DNA from: an uncultured bacterium
Lineage (GTDB): Bacteria; Cyanobacteriota; Vampirovibrionia; Gastranaerophilales; Gastranaerophilaceae
DNA: 64,000 nucleotides
Assembly: GCA_949284035.1 (NCBI GenBank)
Contig: CASDUQ010000045.1
Coordinates: forward strand, 71,170 to 135,169
Reading direction: 5' to 3'
The position numbers were made by a program, and so were the translations under genes. The first letter of the stretch is position 1; each line of letters opens with the position of its first letter. Of this stretch, positions 5,043 through 47,457 are shown one piece after another. The notes beneath the pieces are model-generated. The model saw only the letters and a list, made by a program, of their open reading frames with translations. It did not search any database and was not told the DNA's origin.

Positions 5043-5807
5043 TTGGAGAGATTTATGAATAACACTTCTATTTTTTATTCCAAACAAGGATTTACATTAG
5101 CAGAAGTATTAATAACTCTTGGAATTATCGGAATAGTTGCAGCAATGACAATGCCTTCGCTTATAGCAGAACACCGAGAGAAGAAAACAGTTGCTCAATT
5201 AAAAAAAACATATTCAACACTTCAACAGGCCTATTTAATTGCAATAAGCAAACATGGGGAACCTGAAAACTGGGAGGTTGGAAACACTCATACAAGTACA
5301 AATGAGGACGGAACAACTCAAGTGGATTATTCAGAAGCAGAACTTTTGTTAGAATATCTTTCTGAAAGCATGAATACAATCAACATTAATCAAGAAGCAG
5401 AATACACAAGATATCAACTGAACGGAACTAAGGGGAAAAATGTCAATTTAAAAAATATTCCAAATATTGTGCTATCAGACGGAACAATAATAGCGTTAGG
5501 TTACATAACCGTAACAAAAAATACCGGAGATATTTATGTTATTCTCAATGGCTGCGTACAAAATGGCAGATGCACATTAGGGAAAGACATATATTATTTT
5601 AATATTTCTTTTTCACCGGCAAAAATTATACCTATAGGTGCAGATGGGAGCCAGTATCCTAAAGAAGAATTTAAAAACTACTGTAACAAAACAGTAGACG
5701 ATGGTGATTCAGGCAAGGGCTGCGCAGCATGGGTACTTTATAACGAAAACATGGACTATCTGCATTGCAATGATTTAGACTGGAATACAAAAACGCGATG
5801 CCGTTAA
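5043..5807 (+). CDS. Type IV pilin / pseudopilin-like protein (likely start ATG 5055)
   Basis: KQG|FTLAEVLITLGIIGIVAAMTMP N-methylation motif; SD GGAG precedes 5055; Cys-containing C-terminus CAAWVLYNENMDY. Confidence 0.9.
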   Translation: MERFMNNTSIFYSKQGFTLAEVLITLGIIGIVAAMTMPSLIAEHREKKTVAQLKKTYSTLQQAYLIAISKHGEPENWEVGNTHTSTNEDGTTQVDYSEAELLLEYLSESMNTININQEAEYTRYQLNGTKGKNVNLKNIPNIVLSDGTIIALGYITVTKNTGDIYVILNGCVQNGRCTLGKDIYYFNISFSPAKIIPIGADGSQYPKEEFKNYCNKTVDDGDSGKGCAAWVLYNENMDYLHCNDLDWNTKTRCR

Positions 5808-14969: not shown

Positions 14970-14985
14970 TGTCTTTCCTTATTTG

Positions 14986-15068
14986 GAAGATAAGAGGGTA
15001 AGAAGATATGAAGATAGGCCGGTTTCTAAAAATTGCTTATCTTCTTATCCTCCTGGCTTCTTATCTTC
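14986..15068. repeat. 83-bp palindrome with octamer-built arms, copy 1
   Basis: 34-bp arms (G + 4 x ARGATARG-like + C) around a 15-nt loop; right arm overlaps the 3' end of the SBP gene. Confidence 0.85.
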
Positions 15069-16949: not shown

Positions 16950-17830
16950 TTATTCCCACAGTTCACATTTTTTATCTTTTATATAATCCATGTTTCTTCC
17001 GTAAATAACATGTGCGGTACAGTAATCACCTCTATTCACCATATTATTATCGGAACTCATTCCTTCTAATTTAACCCCGGCAGGAATAATTTTATCCGCA
17101 TAAACGTAAAATGAAAATAAATCTACACCCATCTGATTAGGGCCTGCAAAGCCGTTTACATCAACCCTAAGTATTCCACAACTGGCCCAAGTATTAGTAC
17201 AGTCGGATTTGAATGTAATTGAAGAAAGCAACAATCCGTCATTTAATACCGCATTTGAATACCACTGCATTGTATTAAAATTTAGTCCAAAAGCATACGA
17301 ACCTAAAGAACTGTAACTAACATCAGGGAAACAACCGCTTTGTTTTTTCCCGCAGCTTTTTACCACATTCATATAAGGTAAAAGATAATACAGGATATCT
17401 TCTTCATCATTAGTTGAAGATTGATAATTTACAAGATTCCAACCAGAAATATCCCCATTGTCATTTTTTGCCATTATATACGCATTACTTATAACTGTAT
17501 AAAATTTATTCAATTTGGAAATTATAACCTGTTTTTTGTGATTTGCAATTAACGAAGGCATAGTCATTGCGGCAACCACGCCGATTATGCCAAGAGTTAT
17601 CAAAACCTCAGCCAGGGTAAAGGCAACACTTTCGGATGATAAGAGGATAGGAGGCTTAGAAGATAAGCCATTTACAATAAATTGCTTATCCTCATATCTT
17701 CTTACCTTCTTATCTTCTAATGTATTGGGATCCTGAAACGAGTTCAGGATGACTGAAAAACTAGCCTTCTTGCCCTCTGTTAGCTGGGAACGCCCCCCCC
17801 CCGACGTTTCAGGTTAATTAACTTTTTCAT
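16950..17830 (-). CDS. Type IV pilin-like gene, frameshifted (phase OFF) at a G10 tract
   Basis: SD GGAG + ATG 17830; G10 gives a stop after 16 aa; G11 or G8 opens an uninterrupted frame into VA|FTLAEVLITLGIIG and the ORF called at 16950-17603. Confidence 0.85.
17635..17717. repeat. 83-bp palindrome with octamer-built arms, copy 2 (inside pilin leader)
   Basis: Same 34/15/34 geometry as copy 1; loop also ends AAATT. Confidence 0.85.
17729..17753 (-). repeat. REP-like GTCAT palindrome (inside pilin leader)
   Basis: GTCATCCTGAACTCGTTTCAGGATC on the minus strand; related copies at 18329 and 30309. Confidence 0.8.
17793..17802 (-). repeat. G10 homopolymer (slippage tract)
   Basis: Ten C on the plus strand, starting in codon 10 of the pilin gene. 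Confidence 0.95.
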
Positions 17831-18036
17831 AACTCGCTCCTTTTTTAATATACAAACTCTATAAATCAATTATAGAATATTTTTATCAAATTTTCAAGTG
17901 GCAGATAAAACCGCATTGACTAAACTTTGGAATATTTATCCCAAAAATTAATTTTTCCTTAAGAAAATTAAATTTTTTATGAATTCGTTATATAAATATA
18001 ATGTAGACTTGAATTAGGAGAAAAGGAGAGAATATT

Positions 18037-18328: not shown

Positions 18329-18390
18329 GTCATCCTGAATTTATTTCAGGATTTCATGTTTATCAGATGCTGAAACAAGTTTAGCATGAC
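18329..18390. repeat. REP-like doublet (two inverted GTCAT palindromes) between groES and groEL
   Basis: GTCATCCTGAATTTATTTCAGGAT-14nt-ATGCTGAAACAAGTTTAGCATGAC. Confidence 0.8.
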
Positions 18391-18411
18391 AAATATAGTA
18401 AGGAGAAATAG

Positions 18412-30274: not shown

Positions 30275-30462
30275 GGGAATTAATCGCAGCTTACACTAGA
30301 ATATGTGTGTCATGCTGAACTAGTTTCAGCATCTCTCAATAGTTAGGCTCTGAACTTGTTTCAGGGTCTATCAACACAGAGATTCGAAACACGGAGGTCA
30401 ATCCGACGTTCGGAATGAGACTGTATTTGTAATACATTTAGTGTAAACTGCGATTAATTCCC
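30275..30462. mobile_element. 188-bp MITE with 24-bp TIRs and 8-bp TSD, containing nested REP-like palindromes
   Basis: TIR GGGAATTAATCGCAG(C/T)TTACACTA at 30275-30298 and 30439-30462 (1 mismatch); ATATAATT at 30267-30274 and 30463-30470. Confidence 0.9.
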
Positions 30463-34422: not shown

Positions 34423-35412
34423 ATGACAACTTTATTAGAAAATCCAATTTCAATTCAAGAAAATTTAGATAGAAATTGTGCAATTCGTACAATTAACAGT
34501 GAAATAGATACAATAATTAAACTACGCGACAGTCTTGATAATTCATTGACTAAGGCACTTGATATTATGCAGGAAGCAAAAGGCAGAATAATTTTGACCG
34601 GAATGGGGAAATCAGGTCATATCGGCAAAAAAATTGCAGCATCTCTCGCTTCGACCGGGACACCATCATTTTTTGTACATCCTGCCGAAGCGAGTCATGG
34701 CGATTTGGGAATGATAACTGAAGATGATGTTGTCATTGCAATATCCAATAGCGGAGAATCCAGAGAACTTGTCGATATACTTAATTATTGCAAACGATTC
34801 GGTATAAAACTTATTGCTATTACAAAAAATCCCGAAAGTTCTCTGGGAAAAGCCGGTGATATAGTATTAACACTCCCCAACAACGGGGAAGCATGTCCTT
34901 TGGGACTTGCACCCACTAATTCTACAACAGCAACCCTTGTATTGGGAGATATTTTAACAGCAGGGTTAATTCAAAGAAAAGGGTTTACAAAAGCTGACTT
35001 TAATGAAAGACATCCCGGCGGAAAGTTAGGCTCTATATTAAAACGTGTATCTGATTTAATGCATACAGGCTCTGAAATGCCTATATTGGAAGAAAATTCC
35101 AATATGCAGCAGGTATTACTTGAGATGACTTCTAAACGTTTAGGCTGTGTTGGTTTTATAGACAATAACGGGAATTTAACGGGAATGCTGACTGATGGAG
35201 ATTTAAGACGCTGTTTGACTCCAGAAATATTAAACAAAAAGGCAGTTGAACTAATGACAAAAAATCCTAAAACAATTTCAAAGGATGTTATGGCATCAGA
35301 GGCCATAAAAATAATGCATGAAAAGAAAATTACAAATATTTTTATAGTTGAAAACAACATCCCAATCGGAGTAATACATATTCATGATCTTTTAAATAAT
35401 GGAGTCGTTTAG
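34423..35412 (+). CDS. kdsD: KpsF/GutQ/KdsD arabinose-5-phosphate isomerase (SIS + 2 CBS)
   Basis: TGMGKSGHIG, HPAEASHGDLG, LAPTNST, HPGGKLG, TDGDLRR. Confidence 0.9.
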   Translation: MTTLLENPISIQENLDRNCAIRTINSEIDTIIKLRDSLDNSLTKALDIMQEAKGRIILTGMGKSGHIGKKIAASLASTGTPSFFVHPAEASHGDLGMITEDDVVIAISNSGESRELVDILNYCKRFGIKLIAITKNPESSLGKAGDIVLTLPNNGEACPLGLAPTNSTTATLVLGDILTAGLIQRKGFTKADFNERHPGGKLGSILKRVSDLMHTGSEMPILEENSNMQQVLLEMTSKRLGCVGFIDNNGNLTGMLTDGDLRRCLTPEILNKKAVELMTKNPKTISKDVMASEAIKIMHEKKITNIFIVENNIPIGVIHIHDLLNNGVV

Positions 35413-36620
35413 TGAAAATATTTGAGTATAGAAAATCTGAAAATAAAAGTGTTGCCAAATTATTCGGATTTCCGATAATGGAGCAGACTTCTGATTATAT
35501 GACTACTGAAAGACATCAGAGTTTTTTTAAAGGTTTTGTTTCTACAATAAAAATTAATGATAAATACTCTGATTGCTCAAATAAAATAATAAAAATTCTG
35601 GGCAAAACTATAATAAGGCGAGAAGAAAAAAATAACTTTAGGACTTACTATATTTGGAACAAAGAATTCTGTAGATTTTCTTTACTTGATGAGTTTAAAA
35701 AACGTTACTTTAAGTATTTTGACAACCAGCATGATGATATTTATATATTACGTGCAAATAGCGGAGAAACATATCTTATTTTAACTTATATATTAGATAA
35801 ATTGATAGAAAAAAATAATAGTAAAAAGCCCTTATTAGTTGCCACCCTAAAATATCATGTTGATATGATTAAAATGATTTGTCCGGAAATTCCATACGTT
35901 TATATAGGGAAATTTAGATTAAAACTAAAGGACAGTAATTTTAAAATTGATAATCTTCACTTTTTTCTATTATTCAACCACAACCATTTTTTACAGGTAG
36001 AAAATCAAATCAGAAAAGGTGAATTAGGACAAATACACTATTTTTATTCAATTCTAAAATCTCTTGGTATATCAACTCAAGAGATAAATATGAGACATGT
36101 AAAGGTAAATATAGATGATGAAAACAAAATGCTTGATAAGGTCAAAAAAATCGGTCTAAATCTTAAAAAATTTGTTTTTTTAGCACCTGAGGCGCAATCT
36201 TGCAAATTATATGATGAAGATTTCTGGAGCGAATTAATAAATCAATTACAAACAATAGGATATGATGTGTTTGTAAATCTGGTTGATAATGAAATTAAGC
36301 TTAAAGAAACAATAAATTATAAGACTTGTTATCTGACATTTGCAGAAGCTTTTGCACTTGCAAAATGTTCAAAAAAAATTGTATCTTTAAGGAGCGGTTT
36401 TACAGAATTTCTACTTCAAACAAATGTGCCTATTGATGTCATATATACAAGATTTAGAAAGCGTCATTTTTTCGACGATTTGGATACATACCATGTAATA
36501 GCCGGATTTGGCTTAATGCAGCTACCATTTGTAGATAAATCTAAAATTCATGAATTCAATATGTATGAAATATCACCGAAACAATGTCTAAATGAAATTG
36601 TAAATGGATTAAATCAATGA
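35412..36620 (+). CDS. GT9-like putative glycosyltransferase, paralog 1
   Basis: NSGETY, FLAPEAQS, LRSGFTE; N-terminal K(I/L)(F/L)G repeats. Confidence 0.6.
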   Translation: MKIFEYRKSENKSVAKLFGFPIMEQTSDYMTTERHQSFFKGFVSTIKINDKYSDCSNKIIKILGKTIIRREEKNNFRTYYIWNKEFCRFSLLDEFKKRYFKYFDNQHDDIYILRANSGETYLILTYILDKLIEKNNSKKPLLVATLKYHVDMIKMICPEIPYVYIGKFRLKLKDSNFKIDNLHFFLLFNHNHFLQVENQIRKGELGQIHYFYSILKSLGISTQEINMRHVKVNIDDENKMLDKVKKIGLNLKKFVFLAPEAQSCKLYDEDFWSELINQLQTIGYDVFVNLVDNEIKLKETINYKTCYLTFAEAFALAKCSKKIVSLRSGFTEFLLQTNVPIDVIYTRFRKRHFFDDLDTYHVIAGFGLMQLPFVDKSKIHEFNMYEISPKQCLNEIVNGLNQ

Positions 36621-36630
36621 GGTTTCCAAA

Positions 36631-37758
36631 ATGTTATTTCAAATAAAAGAAACAGCCGATTATAAAAAAATATATATATTTTTTGGTCTTATTAGCTTTA
36701 AGATACTATATCATAATCCATCTATTGCTATAAGGATATTTGGAATTAATATACTAACTCTATATTTATTTAATGGAAAATTATTAATACAGTTAAATAT
36801 AAAAATTCCAATACCTTTTATTGATGATGAATTATTTAAAGCAAAATTTTTATATAATTGTGTAAAAGAAAATTACACAAAAGATTTTGATTGTATTTAT
36901 TCATTATGTGGATCTCCTTCAGGGGAAACATATATTATTTTAAATCTTTTAAATATTATTTTAAGAAAAAATTGTTCAAAACAACCTATATTGGTTGTTG
37001 ACAAAATGTTTAAGTATCAACTATGCAAACTATTTCAACCTGAAATCCCTGTAATTTTATGCAAAAATTTATCTTTTTTATATTTTAATAAGAAAAATTT
37101 TCATAAAATAAAAGGATGTAAAGTTTATAATTATTTTCCAACTCAGCATTATATAAAACAGGATATTTTGATAAATACTAAAGATGAACATTATTTTTCA
37201 TATATAGTCTCTAAGTTAGATTTAAATAGAAATTTATCTTTTAATAAACCCAAAATTTCTGATACAGCAAAACAAAATATTTCGTTATTTATAAAAGAAA
37301 ATAATTTAAAAAATTTTGTTATTATAGCTCCGGAAGCTAATACTTGTTCTGAAGGATGCATTAATTGGACTAAAATTTGCAATAAATTGCAAACTCTGGG
37401 ATATAAAGTTGTATTAAACATAACAGATATGAAGAATTATATTCCACATACGATACCGGTTCTATTAACATATGAAGAAATGTTTATACTCACCCAACAG
37501 GCCAGTGCATTCATAGGCTTACGAAGTGGATTGGTTGAAATTTTATCACAGTGTTCTGAAAACACTCCATTTTTCATATTCTATACAGATTTTCCTAAAA
37601 GGGGGGTATTACAAGCCATGAGCGCAGAAAAAGCATTGTCTGGTTTTACACTAAAAAAGCTTCCAAATGTTAATAAAAATAATATTACTGAACTCGTAGC
37701 AGAAGAAAATAGTATTGAAGAACTATTTAAAAAATTAATCAGAGCAAAAAATAATTGA
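36631..37758 (+). CDS. GT9-like putative glycosyltransferase, paralog 2
   Basis: PSGETY, IIAPEANT, LRSGLVE. Confidence 0.6.
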   Translation: MLFQIKETADYKKIYIFFGLISFKILYHNPSIAIRIFGINILTLYLFNGKLLIQLNIKIPIPFIDDELFKAKFLYNCVKENYTKDFDCIYSLCGSPSGETYIILNLLNIILRKNCSKQPILVVDKMFKYQLCKLFQPEIPVILCKNLSFLYFNKKNFHKIKGCKVYNYFPTQHYIKQDILINTKDEHYFSYIVSKLDLNRNLSFNKPKISDTAKQNISLFIKENNLKNFVIIAPEANTCSEGCINWTKICNKLQTLGYKVVLNITDMKNYIPHTIPVLLTYEEMFILTQQASAFIGLRSGLVEILSQCSENTPFFIFYTDFPKRGVLQAMSAEKALSGFTLKKLPNVNKNNITELVAEENSIEELFKKLIRAKNN

Positions 37759-37764
37759 GGCGTA

Positions 37765-38943
37765 ATGAGCGTGTTAAGAAACATATTTTCAAATAAAATT
37801 TATTGCAACAATAACATTTATAAAAAAATCTTTTTCAATGGTTTATTTTCTATTGAATTTAAAATGTTAGACTATTGTGTATTTTACAAAATATTTAATT
37901 TATCTTTTATGGAAAGAAGATTTAAACGAGGCGTTTCTTTATTTAAGTTGTTTAATACCATAAAATTTAAAACTTCTGAAAAAAGCACATTAGAATTCTT
38001 AAAGCCAATCCTAATTGAATATGTAAAAAATCAAACCTTACAAAAAAATTTCTCATTAATACATTTCATAACAAGATTAGGTGAAACATACTTGCAAATG
38101 TACCATTTAGAAGAATATCTAAATAATAATAAAATTAAAAATCCAATTTTTATCTCCCAATTTAGCAACCTTAAATATATATGTAATATGTTTTATCCTA
38201 AAATAAAATTCATAACTATTCCACAAGTTTTCTTTGAAATGTGTTTTTCTACTGAACTAAAAAATTATAAACATGCAGGCTGTTATTATTTTTTACCTAT
38301 TAATAGAACTCATTTGATTAATGTTGAAAAACAATTAAACAATAATAACCAGATACTTTTTTATGAAGAACTAAAAAAATCATTAAAAATTAAAAAATCT
38401 AATTTGATAAATTACCCAATACTCAGTGTGAATGTTAAAACAAAAAGTGATAATATCATTAAACAATTGAGATTAAAAAAGCGTTTTGCATATATTATTC
38501 CAGATGCTCAATCAAACTCTTCTATGTCGTTAAACTTTTGGAATAAACTTTGTAAGACTTTAAACGTTGACTATAATTATGATATTTTTCTAAATACATT
38601 ACCTCAAGGTTTTCAAAATAAGTATAAACACCATCATATATCAATTGAACAAGCAAAATATATTGCATCAAAAGCTGATATTATTATTGGCATAAGATGT
38701 GGCTTGTTGGATATAGTTACGAATAATTCTTCAGATATTTTTGCAATTTATCTCCCTTTTAATAATAGAGCACCTGAATTTCCTTATTTATCCGCAGAAA
38801 AAGTAATGGGGGCCTTTTCACTAAAGCAACTACCCAATATTTGTAATAAGCATCTTTATGAATATAATGCAGAAATTTATTCTGAAAGATACATTTTAAA
38901 TGAAATTTTAAGTCTCATTTCAAAAAAAGAGGTTGAACATTAA
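37765..38943 (+). CDS. GT9-like putative glycosyltransferase, paralog 3
   Basis: RLGETY, IIPDAQS, IRCGLLD. Confidence 0.6.
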   Translation: MSVLRNIFSNKIYCNNNIYKKIFFNGLFSIEFKMLDYCVFYKIFNLSFMERRFKRGVSLFKLFNTIKFKTSEKSTLEFLKPILIEYVKNQTLQKNFSLIHFITRLGETYLQMYHLEEYLNNNKIKNPIFISQFSNLKYICNMFYPKIKFITIPQVFFEMCFSTELKNYKHAGCYYFLPINRTHLINVEKQLNNNNQILFYEELKKSLKIKKSNLINYPILSVNVKTKSDNIIKQLRLKKRFAYIIPDAQSNSSMSLNFWNKLCKTLNVDYNYDIFLNTLPQGFQNKYKHHHISIEQAKYIASKADIIIGIRCGLLDIVTNNSSDIFAIYLPFNNRAPEFPYLSAEKVMGAFSLKQLPNICNKHLYEYNAEIYSERYILNEILSLISKKEVEH

Positions 38944-40034
38944 TGAATATAGTAAAATTTGAAAACTTAAGACAAGAATCTAAAATAACATTTTTGAATG
39001 GCTTATTAAGTTTATATAAATTTAAATCTATTCTTTGGGAATTAAAATTTTTAAAATTGCCTATTCTAGCTTTTTATAAATATCATTATAGCAATAAAAA
39101 ATATAAATCTATTCTTTTATTTTCAAAACCTAAAATAAAAAAACGTATAGAAGATGAGTGCCTATTTCATATAGTAAATCAATCTCCACAAGAGTATGAC
39201 AATATTGTTTTTATCCGTTCTGGATTAGGGGAAACATATTTATTGAACATATATCTTAAACAGATTTTAGAATCTCTTAATATTGAACTCGAAAATACTT
39301 GTTTTATCGGTCTAAGGGATACTTTTAAAGAAATTTTTCACCAATACAATCCAAATGTAATTTATAAAAAAATTGATTTAAATTGGGATTATCTTTGTCT
39401 TTCATGCGATAAACAAAAATACCAATATAATGGGAAAAATATTTATTTTTATATTGAAAAAAATTATATATACAATCTAATGAATAATTACAAAAACAGT
39501 ACAAATAACACGCACTTTGTTTCTAATATATGTAACTTTTTCAATATTAATAAAAATTCTGCTCAAATAGCAAAATATGTCCCATCAATTTCTGAAAGAG
39601 ATAAAGCAATAACATATTTATATAAAAATAATATAAATATTAATAATTTTATTTTTATTTCTAAAAATGCTATATCAATCGAAAATTTTTCTGATGCTTT
39701 TTGGAATGATTTAGAACACTATTTGAAATTAAAAGGGTATGATATAGTTTACAATCAAAATGAATTCTCTATTACGGAAGCAAAGGTTATTGCAAGTTAT
39801 TCTAAAGCAATTATTGCATTACGTTCTGGTTTTCTAGAAACATTGTCAGAATTAGATAAAAAATTTTATATTCTGAATACAGCACTAACAATGAACAATA
39901 TTAATGCTGAGAGAATAAAAAAACTATACTCTTTAAAGTTTTATCCAAACGTAAAACAAGAAAATATTTTTGAATATGACAATGAAACTATGGATGAAAA
40001 TGAAATTTTATTAGATATATTGAAAGGTGTTTAA
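38943..40034 (+). CDS. GT9-like putative glycosyltransferase, paralog 4
   Basis: GLGETY, LRSGFLE. Confidence 0.6.
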   Translation: MNIVKFENLRQESKITFLNGLLSLYKFKSILWELKFLKLPILAFYKYHYSNKKYKSILLFSKPKIKKRIEDECLFHIVNQSPQEYDNIVFIRSGLGETYLLNIYLKQILESLNIELENTCFIGLRDTFKEIFHQYNPNVIYKKIDLNWDYLCLSCDKQKYQYNGKNIYFYIEKNYIYNLMNNYKNSTNNTHFVSNICNFFNINKNSAQIAKYVPSISERDKAITYLYKNNININNFIFISKNAISIENFSDAFWNDLEHYLKLKGYDIVYNQNEFSITEAKVIASYSKAIIALRSGFLETLSELDKKFYILNTALTMNNINAERIKKLYSLKFYPNVKQENIFEYDNETMDENEILLDILKGV

Positions 40035-41088
40035 TATGAAATTATTTGAAAAAATAAGCGACCAAGCTGCCCCCCCCCCGAACGAACAAGTTAAAATTTT
40101 CGGAATAAATTTTTATGAAAAATATTATAAAAATGGGAAAGAAGTAAGAAAATTTTTATATAACATTTTTAAAATAATAACATCACCCACTAGCAAATCT
40201 TTTTATATTGTAGGGATAAAAATTTTTTATAAAAAATATACAAATAAACAAGAACTTAACTTACTTTATGAAATTATAGGAAACATAAATTTTACTAGAG
40301 AAGAATTAAAAAAATATCTACATAATATAATTCAAGAAACTATAATTGATGAAACACGTATGGCGAATGCAGTAGCTTATTTGCATTCTAAAGTATTTCC
40401 ACAGTTTAAGAATTGTAATATAGGTAAGGATCTTGTGATTGTAGGAACAGGTCCGACTTTAAATAATTATAAATTCAATAAAAAGTTAATACATGTTGGC
40501 TTAAATCGGGCATTTCTGGCCGATAATATCAAGAAGCTTGATTATACATTTCTTATTCATTACAACAAAACATCTTCTACATATATAGAAGAATTGTCAA
40601 AGTATGATTGTATTAAGTTTTTTGGACAATATCATTTTAAAGATATATTGGATTGGAATATTCCTAATATATATGCAAATGCGAAGAATATATATAGATA
40701 TTTTATTGATAGAACATTATTACACCCAAATATTGAAGTTGAAGGTTTGTATGATCCTGGTTCAATAGCTTTTTCAGCTTTACATTTTTCTTTATATACA
40801 CATCCAAAAAGAATATTTTTGGTTGGTTGTGATTGCACTCAAAATGGTTATTATGATAACTCTGTTGAACAGGTCAAATGGTTGGGACTGGCTAATACTT
40901 TAAAAAGTTATCCTATATTAAAAAACTTCGCACAAATTTACTATCCAGATATAGAAATAATTTCAGTAAATCCAATTGGATTAAGAGGGATATTCAGAGA
41001 TGTATATACAAAAAGTTATGTTACTGATAATCCAGAATTATTTATAGGACTTGAAGATAAAATTGAGTATTTTGAAGACATAGTATAA
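40027..41088 (+). CDS. Maf/DUF115-like transferase with in-frame C10 tract (likely start ATG 40036)
   Basis: KDLVIVGTGPTL, VGLNRA, SIAFSALHFS..IFLVGCD; GCT GCC CCC CCC CCG. Confidence 0.7.
   Translation: MFNMKLFEKISDQAAPPPNEQVKIFGINFYEKYYKNGKEVRKFLYNIFKIITSPTSKSFYIVGIKIFYKKYTNKQELNLLYEIIGNINFTREELKKYLHNIIQETIIDETRMANAVAYLHSKVFPQFKNCNIGKDLVIVGTGPTLNNYKFNKKLIHVGLNRAFLADNIKKLDYTFLIHYNKTSSTYIEELSKYDCIKFFGQYHFKDILDWNIPNIYANAKNIYRYFIDRTLLHPNIEVEGLYDPGSIAFSALHFSLYTHPKRIFLVGCDCTQNGYYDNSVEQVKWLGLANTLKSYPILKNFAQIYYPDIEIISVNPIGLRGIFRDVYTKSYVTDNPELFIGLEDKIEYFEDIV
40070..40079 (+). repeat. C10 homopolymer (slippage tract)
   Basis: Ten consecutive C in a very AT-rich gene. Confidence 0.95.
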
Positions 41089-45298: not shown

Positions 45299-46399
45299 TT
45301 ATTTAGAATTTTTACGGAATAATAATTTAAATAATATTGGTATCAATGCAATTCCAGAAATAGGAATACCAATAAAGAACTGCTCAATTTTTTCTTTTAA
45401 CGCAACCTCATTATCGAATAATTTGTATAAATGTTTATAAAATCTTAGAATTCGTAGTGCCGTATCTTTATTTGAAAACAAAATATTTTCGCTTTTGGGA
45501 ACATAAGAATTATCACAATATTCTTTATAATCCAATTCAAAATTATAAAAATTATACAGGTATATATACTGTTCACCGGTAAACGGTTCATACTTACTGC
45601 TGGTGATTTTCAAATTCCTTATACCCGACTGTTTGTATTCCAGAAATATAAAATTGTTTGCAAGACATATTCTTGATTTTTCATTAATCTCTTCAGAGAT
45701 ATCAGAACAATCTTCCATTTTTATATCATCAAAATACTTTGAAAAACATGAATAACCTAAATATTGTTCCGGAGCAAAACGCCAGCTGAATTTTAAATAA
45801 ACAGATTTTTTATCTTTATTCTCAGGGTACTCAAAATAATTCGAAAAATATGGTTCTTCTACCAGTTCTGATGCAAGCAAATATTTTTTTACGTCATTAC
45901 TAAAACCGAAAAACCACCAATCAGAAATATGAAAAGCAATTTCTTGAGGTCTGCTATGTTTAACCTCAAAAATTTTTGAAAATAATGTAGATGCCAATAT
46001 ACGATGTTCAAATAATTTATATTTATCACATCTTTTTGGGAAACAATCAAACATTTTCAAAAAATCTGTATTATCGATTACAGAATCTGTACGTAACTTA
46101 AGTATATATTTACGTGAAGCCTTTTCAACTCCAGATTTTGTTGATACAAGCATTCTATTTAAATTACTATATAATTTTTTATTTTTAAAATTTTTCTGGA
46201 GAATTCCGCCAGGATCTTTATTCAAAATAAGAATATCATAGTTCAAACCTGAAACATCGGAGTTTTCCCATGTTGATAAAATAATCTCTGCTTCGGGCAA
46301 ATTTTTTCTTATACTATTGAGACATTGCATTGTCCTAATTCTATGCACAGGGCCTTGAACAACGACACTTATCTCTTTTGATTCTATTTTTTTCTGCAT
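45299..46399 (-). CDS. WavE-family LPS/capsule synthesis protein
   Basis: ISVVVQGP, IILSTW, DPG..N..R, KLRTD, FHISDWW.FG, APEQY. Confidence 0.8.
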   Translation of the reverse strand: MQKKIESKEISVVVQGPVHRIRTMQCLNSIRKNLPEAEIILSTWENSDVSGLNYDILILNKDPGGILQKNFKNKKLYSNLNRMLVSTKSGVEKASRKYILKLRTDSVIDNTDFLKMFDCFPKRCDKYKLFEHRILASTLFSKIFEVKHSRPQEIAFHISDWWFFGFSNDVKKYLLASELVEEPYFSNYFEYPENKDKKSVYLKFSWRFAPEQYLGYSCFSKYFDDIKMEDCSDISEEINEKSRICLANNFIFLEYKQSGIRNLKITSSKYEPFTGEQYIYLYNFYNFELDYKEYCDNSYVPKSENILFSNKDTALRILRFYKHLYKLFDNEVALKEKIEQFFIGIPISGIALIPILFKLLFRKNSK

Positions 46400-47457
46400 A
46401 TAACCTCCCCGGGCAATGAAAATAAAAACTTACAAAAATAGAGAAAAGTTGAAACCAATTCAACCAACTTTTTCTCCGGATTGCTTAATATCAATAAAAC
46501 AAAATGTTTTCTTAACTGTTCAAAATATTTAATTTTATATAAATTTTCCAAAAATTCTACATCTTTTATCTCATAAGAATTATCACAGTATTTTTTATAA
46601 TCCTTTTTTTGTTCGGCAAGAGAATAATACATAAACTGATTTCTTGCCTGCATTATTGTTCCGGAATACTGTTTCTTTAAAGTAAAAATTCCCCATTCCG
46701 TTGATGAAAAGACTCTAAAATTATTTATTATAAAATCTTCAGATATTGTAATATTTTCGGGATTTACATCCAAATAGTTTCCAAACTTCAAATTGTTAAA
46801 AACTTTTAGCGCATTAGAATATGTAAAGTATTGCTCCGGAGACATTCTCCACAATCTTGCGGGGAAAATATCAGTTCCAGCTTTATTATGAGACTCAAAA
46901 TATCTTGAAAATTCAGGTTCTTTAACTTCCGGAATATTAAACAGCTCCTCCAAGTCCCGACGTAAACCTAAATAACACCAATCAGAAATATGAAATAACA
47001 TACTTTGTTTTATACCTTTACAGGTGTTGAACTTTAAAGAAAAAATATCGTAGGCAAAAATTCTGTCTTTAAAAAGTGAAGAAGATTTATTCCTATGTTT
47101 AAAGCTATCAGATAATTTTAAAATATTATCATTTTTAAGAACAAGATCATTCCTCATTCTTAAAACATACTTTCTTTCGGCCTTTTTTATACCATTACGG
47201 CTTGAAATAAGTATTCTGTTTAAACTGTTTGTTTTTTGTTTTTCTGTCTCAAATACAACAGCACCAGGATCATCATTTAAGACAAGAATATCATATAAAC
47301 CATCGTAAGGAGAAACATCAGAATTTTTCCAGGTCGACAAAATAATCTGAGCTTCGGGTAAATACTTTCTAATACTCTTCAAGCAGGGAATAGTCTCACA
47401 AGGGGTAACAGCCCCCTGAATAACTACAGATAAGTCTTTGCTTGAAATTTGTTTCAA
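46384..47457 (-). CDS. WavE-family LPS/capsule synthesis protein
   Basis: LSVVIQG, IILSTW, DDPG, RMRND, FHISDW, SPEQY. Confidence 0.8.
   Translation of the reverse strand: MKQISSKDLSVVIQGAVTPCETIPCLKSIRKYLPEAQIILSTWKNSDVSPYDGLYDILVLNDDPGAVVFETEKQKTNSLNRILISSRNGIKKAERKYVLRMRNDLVLKNDNILKLSDSFKHRNKSSSLFKDRIFAYDIFSLKFNTCKGIKQSMLFHISDWCYLGLRRDLEELFNIPEVKEPEFSRYFESHNKAGTDIFPARLWRMSPEQYFTYSNALKVFNNLKFGNYLDVNPENITISEDFIINNFRVFSSTEWGIFTLKKQYSGTIMQARNQFMYYSLAEQKKDYKKYCDNSYEIKDVEFLENLYKIKYFEQLRKHFVLLILSNPEKKLVELVSTFLYFCKFLFSLPGEVICRKK

Follow-up and report, generated by a model that had tools for sequence, protein, structure and literature searches.

A putative poly-G contingency switch on a type-IV-pilin-like gene of Gastranaerophilales

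Results and discussion

Structure of the pilin locus

The DNA analysed here is a 64-kb stretch (64,000 nucleotides, hereafter the window) from an uncultured Gastranaerophilales bacterium. Its reverse strand carries a pilin-like gene in which the start codon and the mature coding region are separated by a homopolymeric G run and a long spacer (positions are given in Table 1). The observation of a pilin gene interrupted by G10, made in an initial annotation of this DNA, is confirmed: from the Shine-Dalgarno sequence and the ATG at 17830, translation ends after 16 aa at the TAA at 17782-17780. When tract lengths from 7 to 13 were translated, G11 gave a read-through product of 293 aa and G8 one of 292 aa, both entering the mature protein as A followed by FTLAEVLITLGIIG, while G7, G9, G10, G12 and G13 yielded only peptides of 15-23 aa. 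A change in length thus toggles between a truncated product of 16-23 aa and one of 292/293 aa, with the ORF otherwise intact; the tract alone is the frame lesion in this gene. The open G11/G8 frame and the 70 codons counted before the pilin in the annotation were both correct, Phe+1 being residue 71 of the G11 product.

The pilin frame, which lies at +1 nt, has a stop just upstream of the tract and is stop-free from the tract to the stop at 16950, the spacer leading into ...SESVA and then FTLAEVLITLGIIGVVAAMTMPSL. In the ORF listing no ATG, GTG or TTG occurs in this frame from the upstream stop to the TTG at 17603, and this TTG falls within the hydrophobic helix; both points had been anticipated. 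Only two G/C runs of at least 7 nt are found in the 64-kb window, both of them 10-mers (17793-17802 and 40070-40079), and 0.21 matches to G8 are expected from shuffled sequence, so that the description of G10 as an extreme outlier holds. Simple-sequence-repeat (SSR) contingency loci are marked by a G or C homopolymer, at least 7-8 nt long, in the promoter or the 5' coding region, and such a run is present here in the latter.

Table 1. Positions of the elements of the pilin locus in the window
Feature	Position	Strand	Remark
Sigma-70-type promoter, TTGAAA-17 nt-TATAAT	17869..17897	(-)	11/12, best match of the region; kept in syntenic orthologs L002, L003 and L007
Shine-Dalgarno AAGGAG	17837..17842	(-)	ATG 6 nt downstream; direct reading
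Short OFF-state ORF, MKKLINLKRRGGGVPS*, 16 aa	17780..17830	(-)	ATG 17830, stop TAA 17782-17780
G10 homopolymer, proposed switch	17793..17802	(-)	9 codons / 28 nt after ATG
Spacer, 57 codons	17622..17792	(-)	No stop in the pilin frame, 5 in each of the other two; would form most of the ON-form leader
Small hairpin repeat in spacer, atcctgaa-CTCGT-ttcaggat	17730..17750	(-)	Part of the multi-copy stretch 17723-17808
87-nt REP-like palindromic element in spacer	17631..17717	(-)	Translated in frame (…EDKKVRRYEDKQFIVNGLSSKPPILL…)
Mature pilin-like protein, 223 aa, start FTLAEVLITLGIIGVVAAMTMPSL, DUF6613 family	16950..17621 (stop included)	(-)	

The pilin-like protein

Homologs of the protein carry precomputed assignments to PF20318 (DUF6613), often together with PF07963. 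PF20318 is precomputed on nearly all of them, including P0001, which is 99% identical; hmmscan of the window protein itself gave no PF20318 match. The N-terminus matches type IV pilus and type II secretion pseudopilin models, below threshold in the window protein (14.8 bits for PF07963 and 14.9 for TIGR02532, with cut-offs of 21.2 and 16.3) and at threshold in homologs such as P0049 (21.2 and 20.8) and P0008 (24.2). The type IV pilin hallmarks of Phe+1, Glu+5 and about 21 hydrophobic residues are all found in FTLAEVLITLGIIGVVAAMTMPSL. In alignment A1, residues F2, T3, L4, A5 and E6 are invariant and Cys202/Cys220 are conserved. The AF2 model (pLDDT 89) consists of an N-terminal helix of 53 residues (4-56) and a beta domain of 7 strands; a Foldseek search with it against the PDB returned no match at E < 1.

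The protein is called type-IV-pilin-like, and not a proven pilin, because the pseudopilin hits are below threshold here and at threshold in homologs, and because the predicted fold found no solved relative. Its pilin-type N-terminus and the model point to a surface structure, or one exposed to host or phage, as would be expected of the product of a contingency locus. The 205-aa product annotated in the window had no exact protein record in the look-up.

Two more pilin-like genes are present in the window, at 5088 (+) and 24629 (-). Neither has a tract, and both have short leaders with Gly at -1, namely MNNTSIFYSKQ and MKFGYN, each followed by GFTLAEV. Their conserved N-terminal coding regions account for the 77-nt inverted repeat I2.

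Tract alleles in other samples and in syntenic orthologs

Tract alleles were read between samples from assembled contigs (20 runs, all as contigs), which were placed on the window by the unique upstream flank. Matches to the window came from chicken-gut and manure metagenomes. Two contigs, L099 with G10 and L100 with G9, match the window with 100% identity outside the tract, along a region of about 480 nt that spans promoter, leader, spacer and pilin N-terminus. On such identical flanks, G10 is found in the window, L099, X1 and X4, and G9 in L100 and X9. The X2 allele has 11 nt (G8-A-GG), is in frame and translates to the full 293-aa protein; the X3 allele has 12 nt. Since an A interrupts the run both in the X2 ON allele and in that of X3, these two are not pure slippage products. 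Contig ends coincide with the tract in X6, X8 and X11.

The tract is thus polymorphic in length (G9, G10, 11 nt and 12 nt) between conserved flanks, as is characteristic of SSR contingency loci. The initial annotation had suggested a look at the same locus in other strains, and had named two outcomes that would speak against a switch: a G11 in all reads, or a G10 with further decay of the ORF. Neither was found: independent assemblies do not agree on G11, and the ORF is free of further decay.

Syntenic orthologs have the gene order groES, pilin, SBP_bac_5. Two of them (L002 and L003) carry G10 and are OFF, and a third (L007) carries G9 and is ON from its own SD-ATG. Their promoter, SD, ATG and tract are retained despite spacers of wholly different length (109, 181, 235 and 464 nt). 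The OFF peptide of L001-L003 has a common ending, '...RGGG(V/I)xS*'. On the sequence evidence, then, the switch anatomy, a tract polymorphism on an identical background, an ortholog predicted to be ON and an allele predicted to be ON all occur at this locus.

Word depth in X1 reaches 15-20 times that of the flanks over about 17723-17812, and the loose ends past 17804/17808 lead into other ATG-plus-leader sequences. The X1 community therefore contains many copies of the tract module.

Census of pilin 5' ends in the family

Relatives of the gene were found in Gastranaerophilales/Melainabacteria MAGs from many hosts. For the census, 80 loci were taken from a profile search, blind to their ON/OFF state; they supply 80 different 5' ends of pilin genes and come from dozens of Gastranaerophilales MAGs. 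Half of them (40/80) carry a homopolymer of 8-12 nt, G in 29 and C in 11, with a mode of 10 (G8 in 1, G9 in 6, G10 in 17, G11 in 3, G12 in 2, C10 in 10 and C11 in 1). In 36 of these 40 loci an SD-ATG lies about 20-35 nt before the tract, and in the remaining four it lies 71-84 nt before it. These tracts make up 40 of the 44 runs of at least 7 nt in 268 kb of locus sequence, and when such runs were sought again independently of the ORF, 39/40 were in or abutting the open pilin frame. Several genomes have more than one tract-bearing paralog (L001 with L002; L003 with L053 and L096; a tandem pair in L009-L014).

The spacers between tract and Phe+1 range from 26 to 551 nt in the 40 loci. Their 1658 codons contain no stop in the pilin frame; the other two frames contain 156 and 130. 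At the stop rate of those frames, about 8.6% per codon, the chance of finding none is P ~1e-65. An SD-preceded in-frame start between tract and Phe+1 is absent in 37/40 tract loci, and any start codon at all is absent in 20/40. The mature ORF is intact in the window and in all orthologs. In database proteins the tract is read through and appears as 'GGG'.

Counted from the ATG next to the SD, only 2/40 loci have an ON consensus (P ~2e-5 against a neutral 1/3). Of the others, 27 would come into frame with one more nucleotide (+1 nt) and 11 with one fewer (-1 nt). The most frequent length observed is 10, and the most frequent ON length is 11. The OFF state of the other 38 had not been foreseen in the initial annotation. 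An earlier impression that G10/OFF(+1) was invariant, which came from 5/5 loci, was dropped when the larger sample brought lengths of 8-12 and both directions.

Half of the paralogous pilin genes thus have an 8-12 nt run at the same position, and the putative device would be lineage-wide. The open frame behind the tract points to selection for it, and the arrangement recurs across species. As judged from these comparisons, the family-wide data are the signature of a maintained contingency device, and not of decay.

In L079, L054, L040, L058 and L077, interrupted runs such as GGGGTGGGGG and GGGGGGAGGGGG stand upstream of FTLAE at the position of the pure tract; these could be forms of the switch that have become 'locked'. 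In L002/L003 (1367-1395, atgaaaagattatttgATGaaaaacatcG10) and in L009-L014 (about 1478-1506, …caagaATGtcG10), a second ATG stands immediately ahead of the tract in a different frame, so that two of the three tract-length classes could yield a product. Gene callers pick this second, SD-less ATG in the leaders of L002/L003 and L009-L014.

The long leader and its repeat elements

The leader of the ON form has 70 aa and ends in Ala, and those of relatives reach about 190 aa. Leaders of bacterial class III signals have 6-26 aa and end in Gly (PMC4471445), and the ON-form product has neither property. Ala at -1 is shared by 59/80 family members, among them some with classical short leaders, for example MKKYA before FTLAEV. 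In other respects the protein resembles canonical type IV prepilins, with Phe+1, Glu+5, the hydrophobic stretch, a predicted long N-terminal helix with a beta domain and a C-terminal Cys pair. A 70-codon leader with repeat elements, non-canonical for a prepilin, was likewise not foreseen.

The spacer palindrome folds as a long hairpin. A second copy of the 87-nt element occupies 14982-15068 at the junction of the SBP and permease genes, overlapping both the 3' end of the former and the intercistronic gap; the two copies are 77-79% alike and each is self-complementary. An Rfam search of the spacer gave only sub-threshold, miRNA-like noise at the palindrome, and a known riboswitch, intron or ribozyme was rejected on this ground. 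The repeat elements of the spacer are kept in frame, and the N-terminal extensions of homologs are rich in repeat-derived peptides. Long in-frame leaders that start at an SD-ATG are also found in relatives without a tract, such as the 82 codons of L030 in the complete MEL.A1 genome, CP017245. It is plausible that the leader tolerates in-frame insertions, since it would stay in the cytoplasm and be removed.

Short GC-rich hairpins of the family c-atcctgaa/atgctgaa…ttcaggat/ttcagcat-g occur at 17730-17750, ~18331, 18365-18397, 30302-30334 and ~57247, at scattered intergenic spots that include the groES-groEL spacer. Translated, they give peptides such as VILNSFQDL and MLKQVQHD, which are frequent in hypothetical proteins of the lineage. 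Units of about 60 nt, encoding AFTLA(E/D)-G/C-ATHVA-…-R-x-A, stand in 1-3 copies directly before the real cleavage site between A and FTLAEV in L001 (6018-6080), L009-L014, L019, L030 and L031, and thereby duplicate the cleavage motif. These units may have arisen by unequal recombination or through a small insertion that duplicated its target.

A poly-G switch as the preferred explanation

With a probability of about 0.7, the locus is a simple-sequence poly-G contingency switch on a type-IV-pilin-like gene, caught in the OFF state. The transcription and translation signals are intact, and the sole start codon stands 28 nt before the G10 run. At G10, G9 or G12 the ribosome would stop after 16-23 codons. 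Slipped-strand mispairing during replication would produce G11 or G8 and join the start to a precursor of 293 or 292 aa, with a 70-aa cytoplasmic leader built partly from in-frame REP-like palindromes. Prepilin peptidase presumably cuts after Ala-1, leaving a mature N-terminus of FTLAEV... Because most populations sit one nucleotide from ON, each pilin would probably be made by a minority of cells. The phase-variation reading of the initial annotation is supported by the length-polymorphic tract on an identical background, the ON ortholog with G9 and the 40/80 related pilin genes that carry a tract. Reversibility within a clone, a switching rate and cleavage of the leader would follow from the model, and the benefit may be escape from antibody or phage, or a choice of adhesin.

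Several points weigh against a phase switch. The first is that only 2/40 consensus sequences are ON, far fewer than in Campylobacter, and that 27 loci need the same +1, with which an RNA-level mechanism would agree as well. The scarcity of ON consensus could reflect expression in a minority of cells, counter-selection of ON in the gut, or RNA-level slippage that supplies expression. The second is the A within the run of the X2 ON allele and of the X3 allele. The third is that the predicted precursor breaks two prepilin rules, leader length and Gly-1, and that its globular domain matches no solved pilin.

A broader picture can be offered only tentatively, as possible rather than probable: a lineage-wide 'pilin phasome' in which paralogs are held one nucleotide short of ON, expression depends on rare slippage at the DNA and/or RNA level, and a REP-built leader of 70 to about 190 aa is cut after Ala-1. 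If true, leaders of this kind would form a new class among prepilins, and the system might be the first programmed slippage on G runs for pilins.

Alternative explanations

Programmed recoding at the RNA level ranks second, below a DNA phase switch. The DNA would stay near ten G residues, and slippage of RNA polymerase on the run would add or remove a G in a fraction of the transcripts; alternatively, ribosomes would make a -1 shift on G GGG GGG. The pilin would then be expressed constitutively at a low level, with no heritable ON and OFF states. An RNA:DNA hybrid is about 10 nt long, which would suit slippage on 10-nt runs. The 38/40 loci that are out of frame, the 27 that need exactly +1 nt and a modal length of 10 beside a modal ON length of 11 are also what this mechanism would give. 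Stops lie within a few codons of the tract on both sides, upstream in the pilin frame and downstream in the ATG frame, as is typical of recoding sites; here, as in programmed slippage and -1 frameshifting, a homopolymer stands at the junction of two frames with a short overlap and the genome is out of frame. Transcriptional slippage is an established route of bacterial gene expression (PMC1088944).

Known programmed systems use a fixed run, mostly A/T, in a single direction, whereas length (8-12 nt), direction and the DNA itself vary here. Eleven loci need -1 and two are in frame, which does not agree with one conserved direction. No conserved stimulatory sequence beyond a flanking C surrounds the tract in the tract-bearing loci compared. 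At this very locus the length varies in DNA, and ON alleles and orthologs exist. Slippage is documented mainly on A/T runs, G/C runs being regarded as less prone (PMC5084427), and the in-frame C10 of the maf-like gene described below argues against obligatory slippage at every 10-mer. Because both directions occur, no stimulator is conserved and the DNA varies, we consider RNA-level recoding unlikely as the main explanation and keep it behind the DNA switch.

Assembly error and simple decay are both poorly supported. Under the former, the true sequence would be G11, miscalled in an intact gene. Long G runs do trouble sequencing chemistry (PMC9187656), and 10 is the commonest assembled length; against this, independent samples and assemblers give G10 (window, L099, X1 and X4), others give G9, 11 and 12 nt, and sequencing of a G11 template in a Bifidobacterium breve control gave the right length in the great majority of families (PMC9187656). 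Every length from 8 to 12 is reported at other loci, which shows that calls do not stop at 10, and a miscall is very improbable.

Decay would mean a plain pseudogene, in which a REP/MITE-like insertion separated the start codon from the N-terminus and the G run is incidental. The spacer does hold the 87-nt palindrome, with its second intergenic copy, and a multi-copy hairpin module, and the other pilins in the window have short leaders without a tract. An inactive remnant would hardly keep 1658 spacer codons free of stops over 40 loci (P ~1e-65), an intact mature ORF here and in all orthologs, and a conserved promoter and SD; tract-free relatives, moreover, have long in-frame leaders too (L030). 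It is an equally remote explanation.

A translational bypass like that of T4 gene 60, or a small spacer intron, was rejected because no spacer of the 40 loci has a stop in the pilin frame, although neither mechanism would need it to stay open. A silent cassette like Neisseria pilS was rejected as well, the promoter, SD and ATG being present and conserved.

Comparison with known systems

In Neisseria, a G run in the signal-peptide region of pilC reportedly turns type IV piliation ON and OFF by frameshift. PilC is a tip adhesin and assembly factor, not a pilin, and its gene differs from the present one in a Sec-type signal and the lack of a long spacer. Variation of the Neisseria pilin itself arises by pilE/pilS recombination. 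The poly-G tract of pilC is attributed to Jonsson et al. 1991, as cited in PMC5084427.

The sortase-dependent pilus of B. breve offers another parallel. There, a G run of 10-12 nt splits the ORF of a secretion signal from that of the pilus subunit, the second ORF lacks a translational start, the reference genome is OFF and the population is of mixed length; tracts of this type recur on pilus clusters across the genus (PMC9187656). Both cases concern a gut commensal with an intragenic G run that gates a pilus subunit and an OFF reference. B. breve, an actinobacterium, has sortase/LPXTG pili, a Sec signal and 1-2 loci per genome, whereas the present system involves a type-IV-pilin-like protein, a class III signal, a relative of cyanobacteria, many paralogs per genome and, behind the tract, a long spacer that is translated. 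In B. breve switching was measured; here it is proposed from sequence.

Likeness to Campylobacter tracts had been pointed out in the initial annotation and is well founded. Campylobacter, also an AT-rich gut bacterium, has 8-12 nt G/C runs in many surface-structure genes, with a distribution peaked at 9-10 (9 in 53% and 10 in 26% by PhasomeIt, PMC6321876), and its tracts include genes of the maf family (PMC6321876), like the second tract gene described below. A sharp peak of lengths, as seen in the present census, is accordingly nothing unusual. The Campylobacter tracts differ in that they lie in glycan, flagellar-modification and other genes, not pilins, and in ON fractions near or above neutral expectation, against 2/40 here.

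The mechanism is therefore of a known kind, that of Neisseria pilC, Campylobacter and B. breve pili, in a new lineage and gene family. A literature search found nothing that links Melainabacteria or Gastranaerophilales with phase variation, pilins or homopolymeric tracts, and nothing on DUF6613; in the literature searched there was no account of this lineage or gene family in such a role, of a device on this scale (half of the paralogs in dozens of species), of its bias towards OFF or of a hyper-long leader built from repeats.

Gastranaerophilales are widespread, uncultured gut relatives of cyanobacteria. Pilin genes gated by slippage, and conserved as a set, would imply strong, fluctuating selection on their pili, by antibody, phage or choice of niche, and provide a concrete handle for studying that selection in metagenomes. 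The long in-frame leaders also bear on the length of leader that prepilin peptidases can accept. Gene callers misannotate these genes, either as a truncated 205-aa protein from an internal Met or with spurious long N-termini, and pilin repertoires of the lineage are consequently miscounted.

A second tract in a glycan island

The other 10-mer of the window, which the initial annotation did not foresee, is a C10 on the plus strand (40070-40079), 44 nt into an ORF of 353 aa at 40027-41088 (+). This ORF has a weak MptE-like/DUF115 (maf-like) match, and its tract is in frame (…SDQAAPPPNEQ…). The gene lies in a glycan-type cluster of 23-30% GC, next to a CMP-sugar cytidylyltransferase. No relatives of it were found among the genome contigs searched, and its product had no exact protein record in the look-up. 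X1 is identical, the contigs of X2 break exactly at the C10 tract, and X3 and X4 are without the island.

The maf-like gene is preceded at 35412-40034 (+) by four paralogous ORFs in a row, 363-402 aa in length; the last of them (38943-40034), which was the one scanned, has no Pfam match. Tandem repeats of about 1.06 kb (families D10, D11 and D14) follow at 45500-47300. Together, the four paralogous ORFs and these repeats suggest an expanding gene family in the glycan island.
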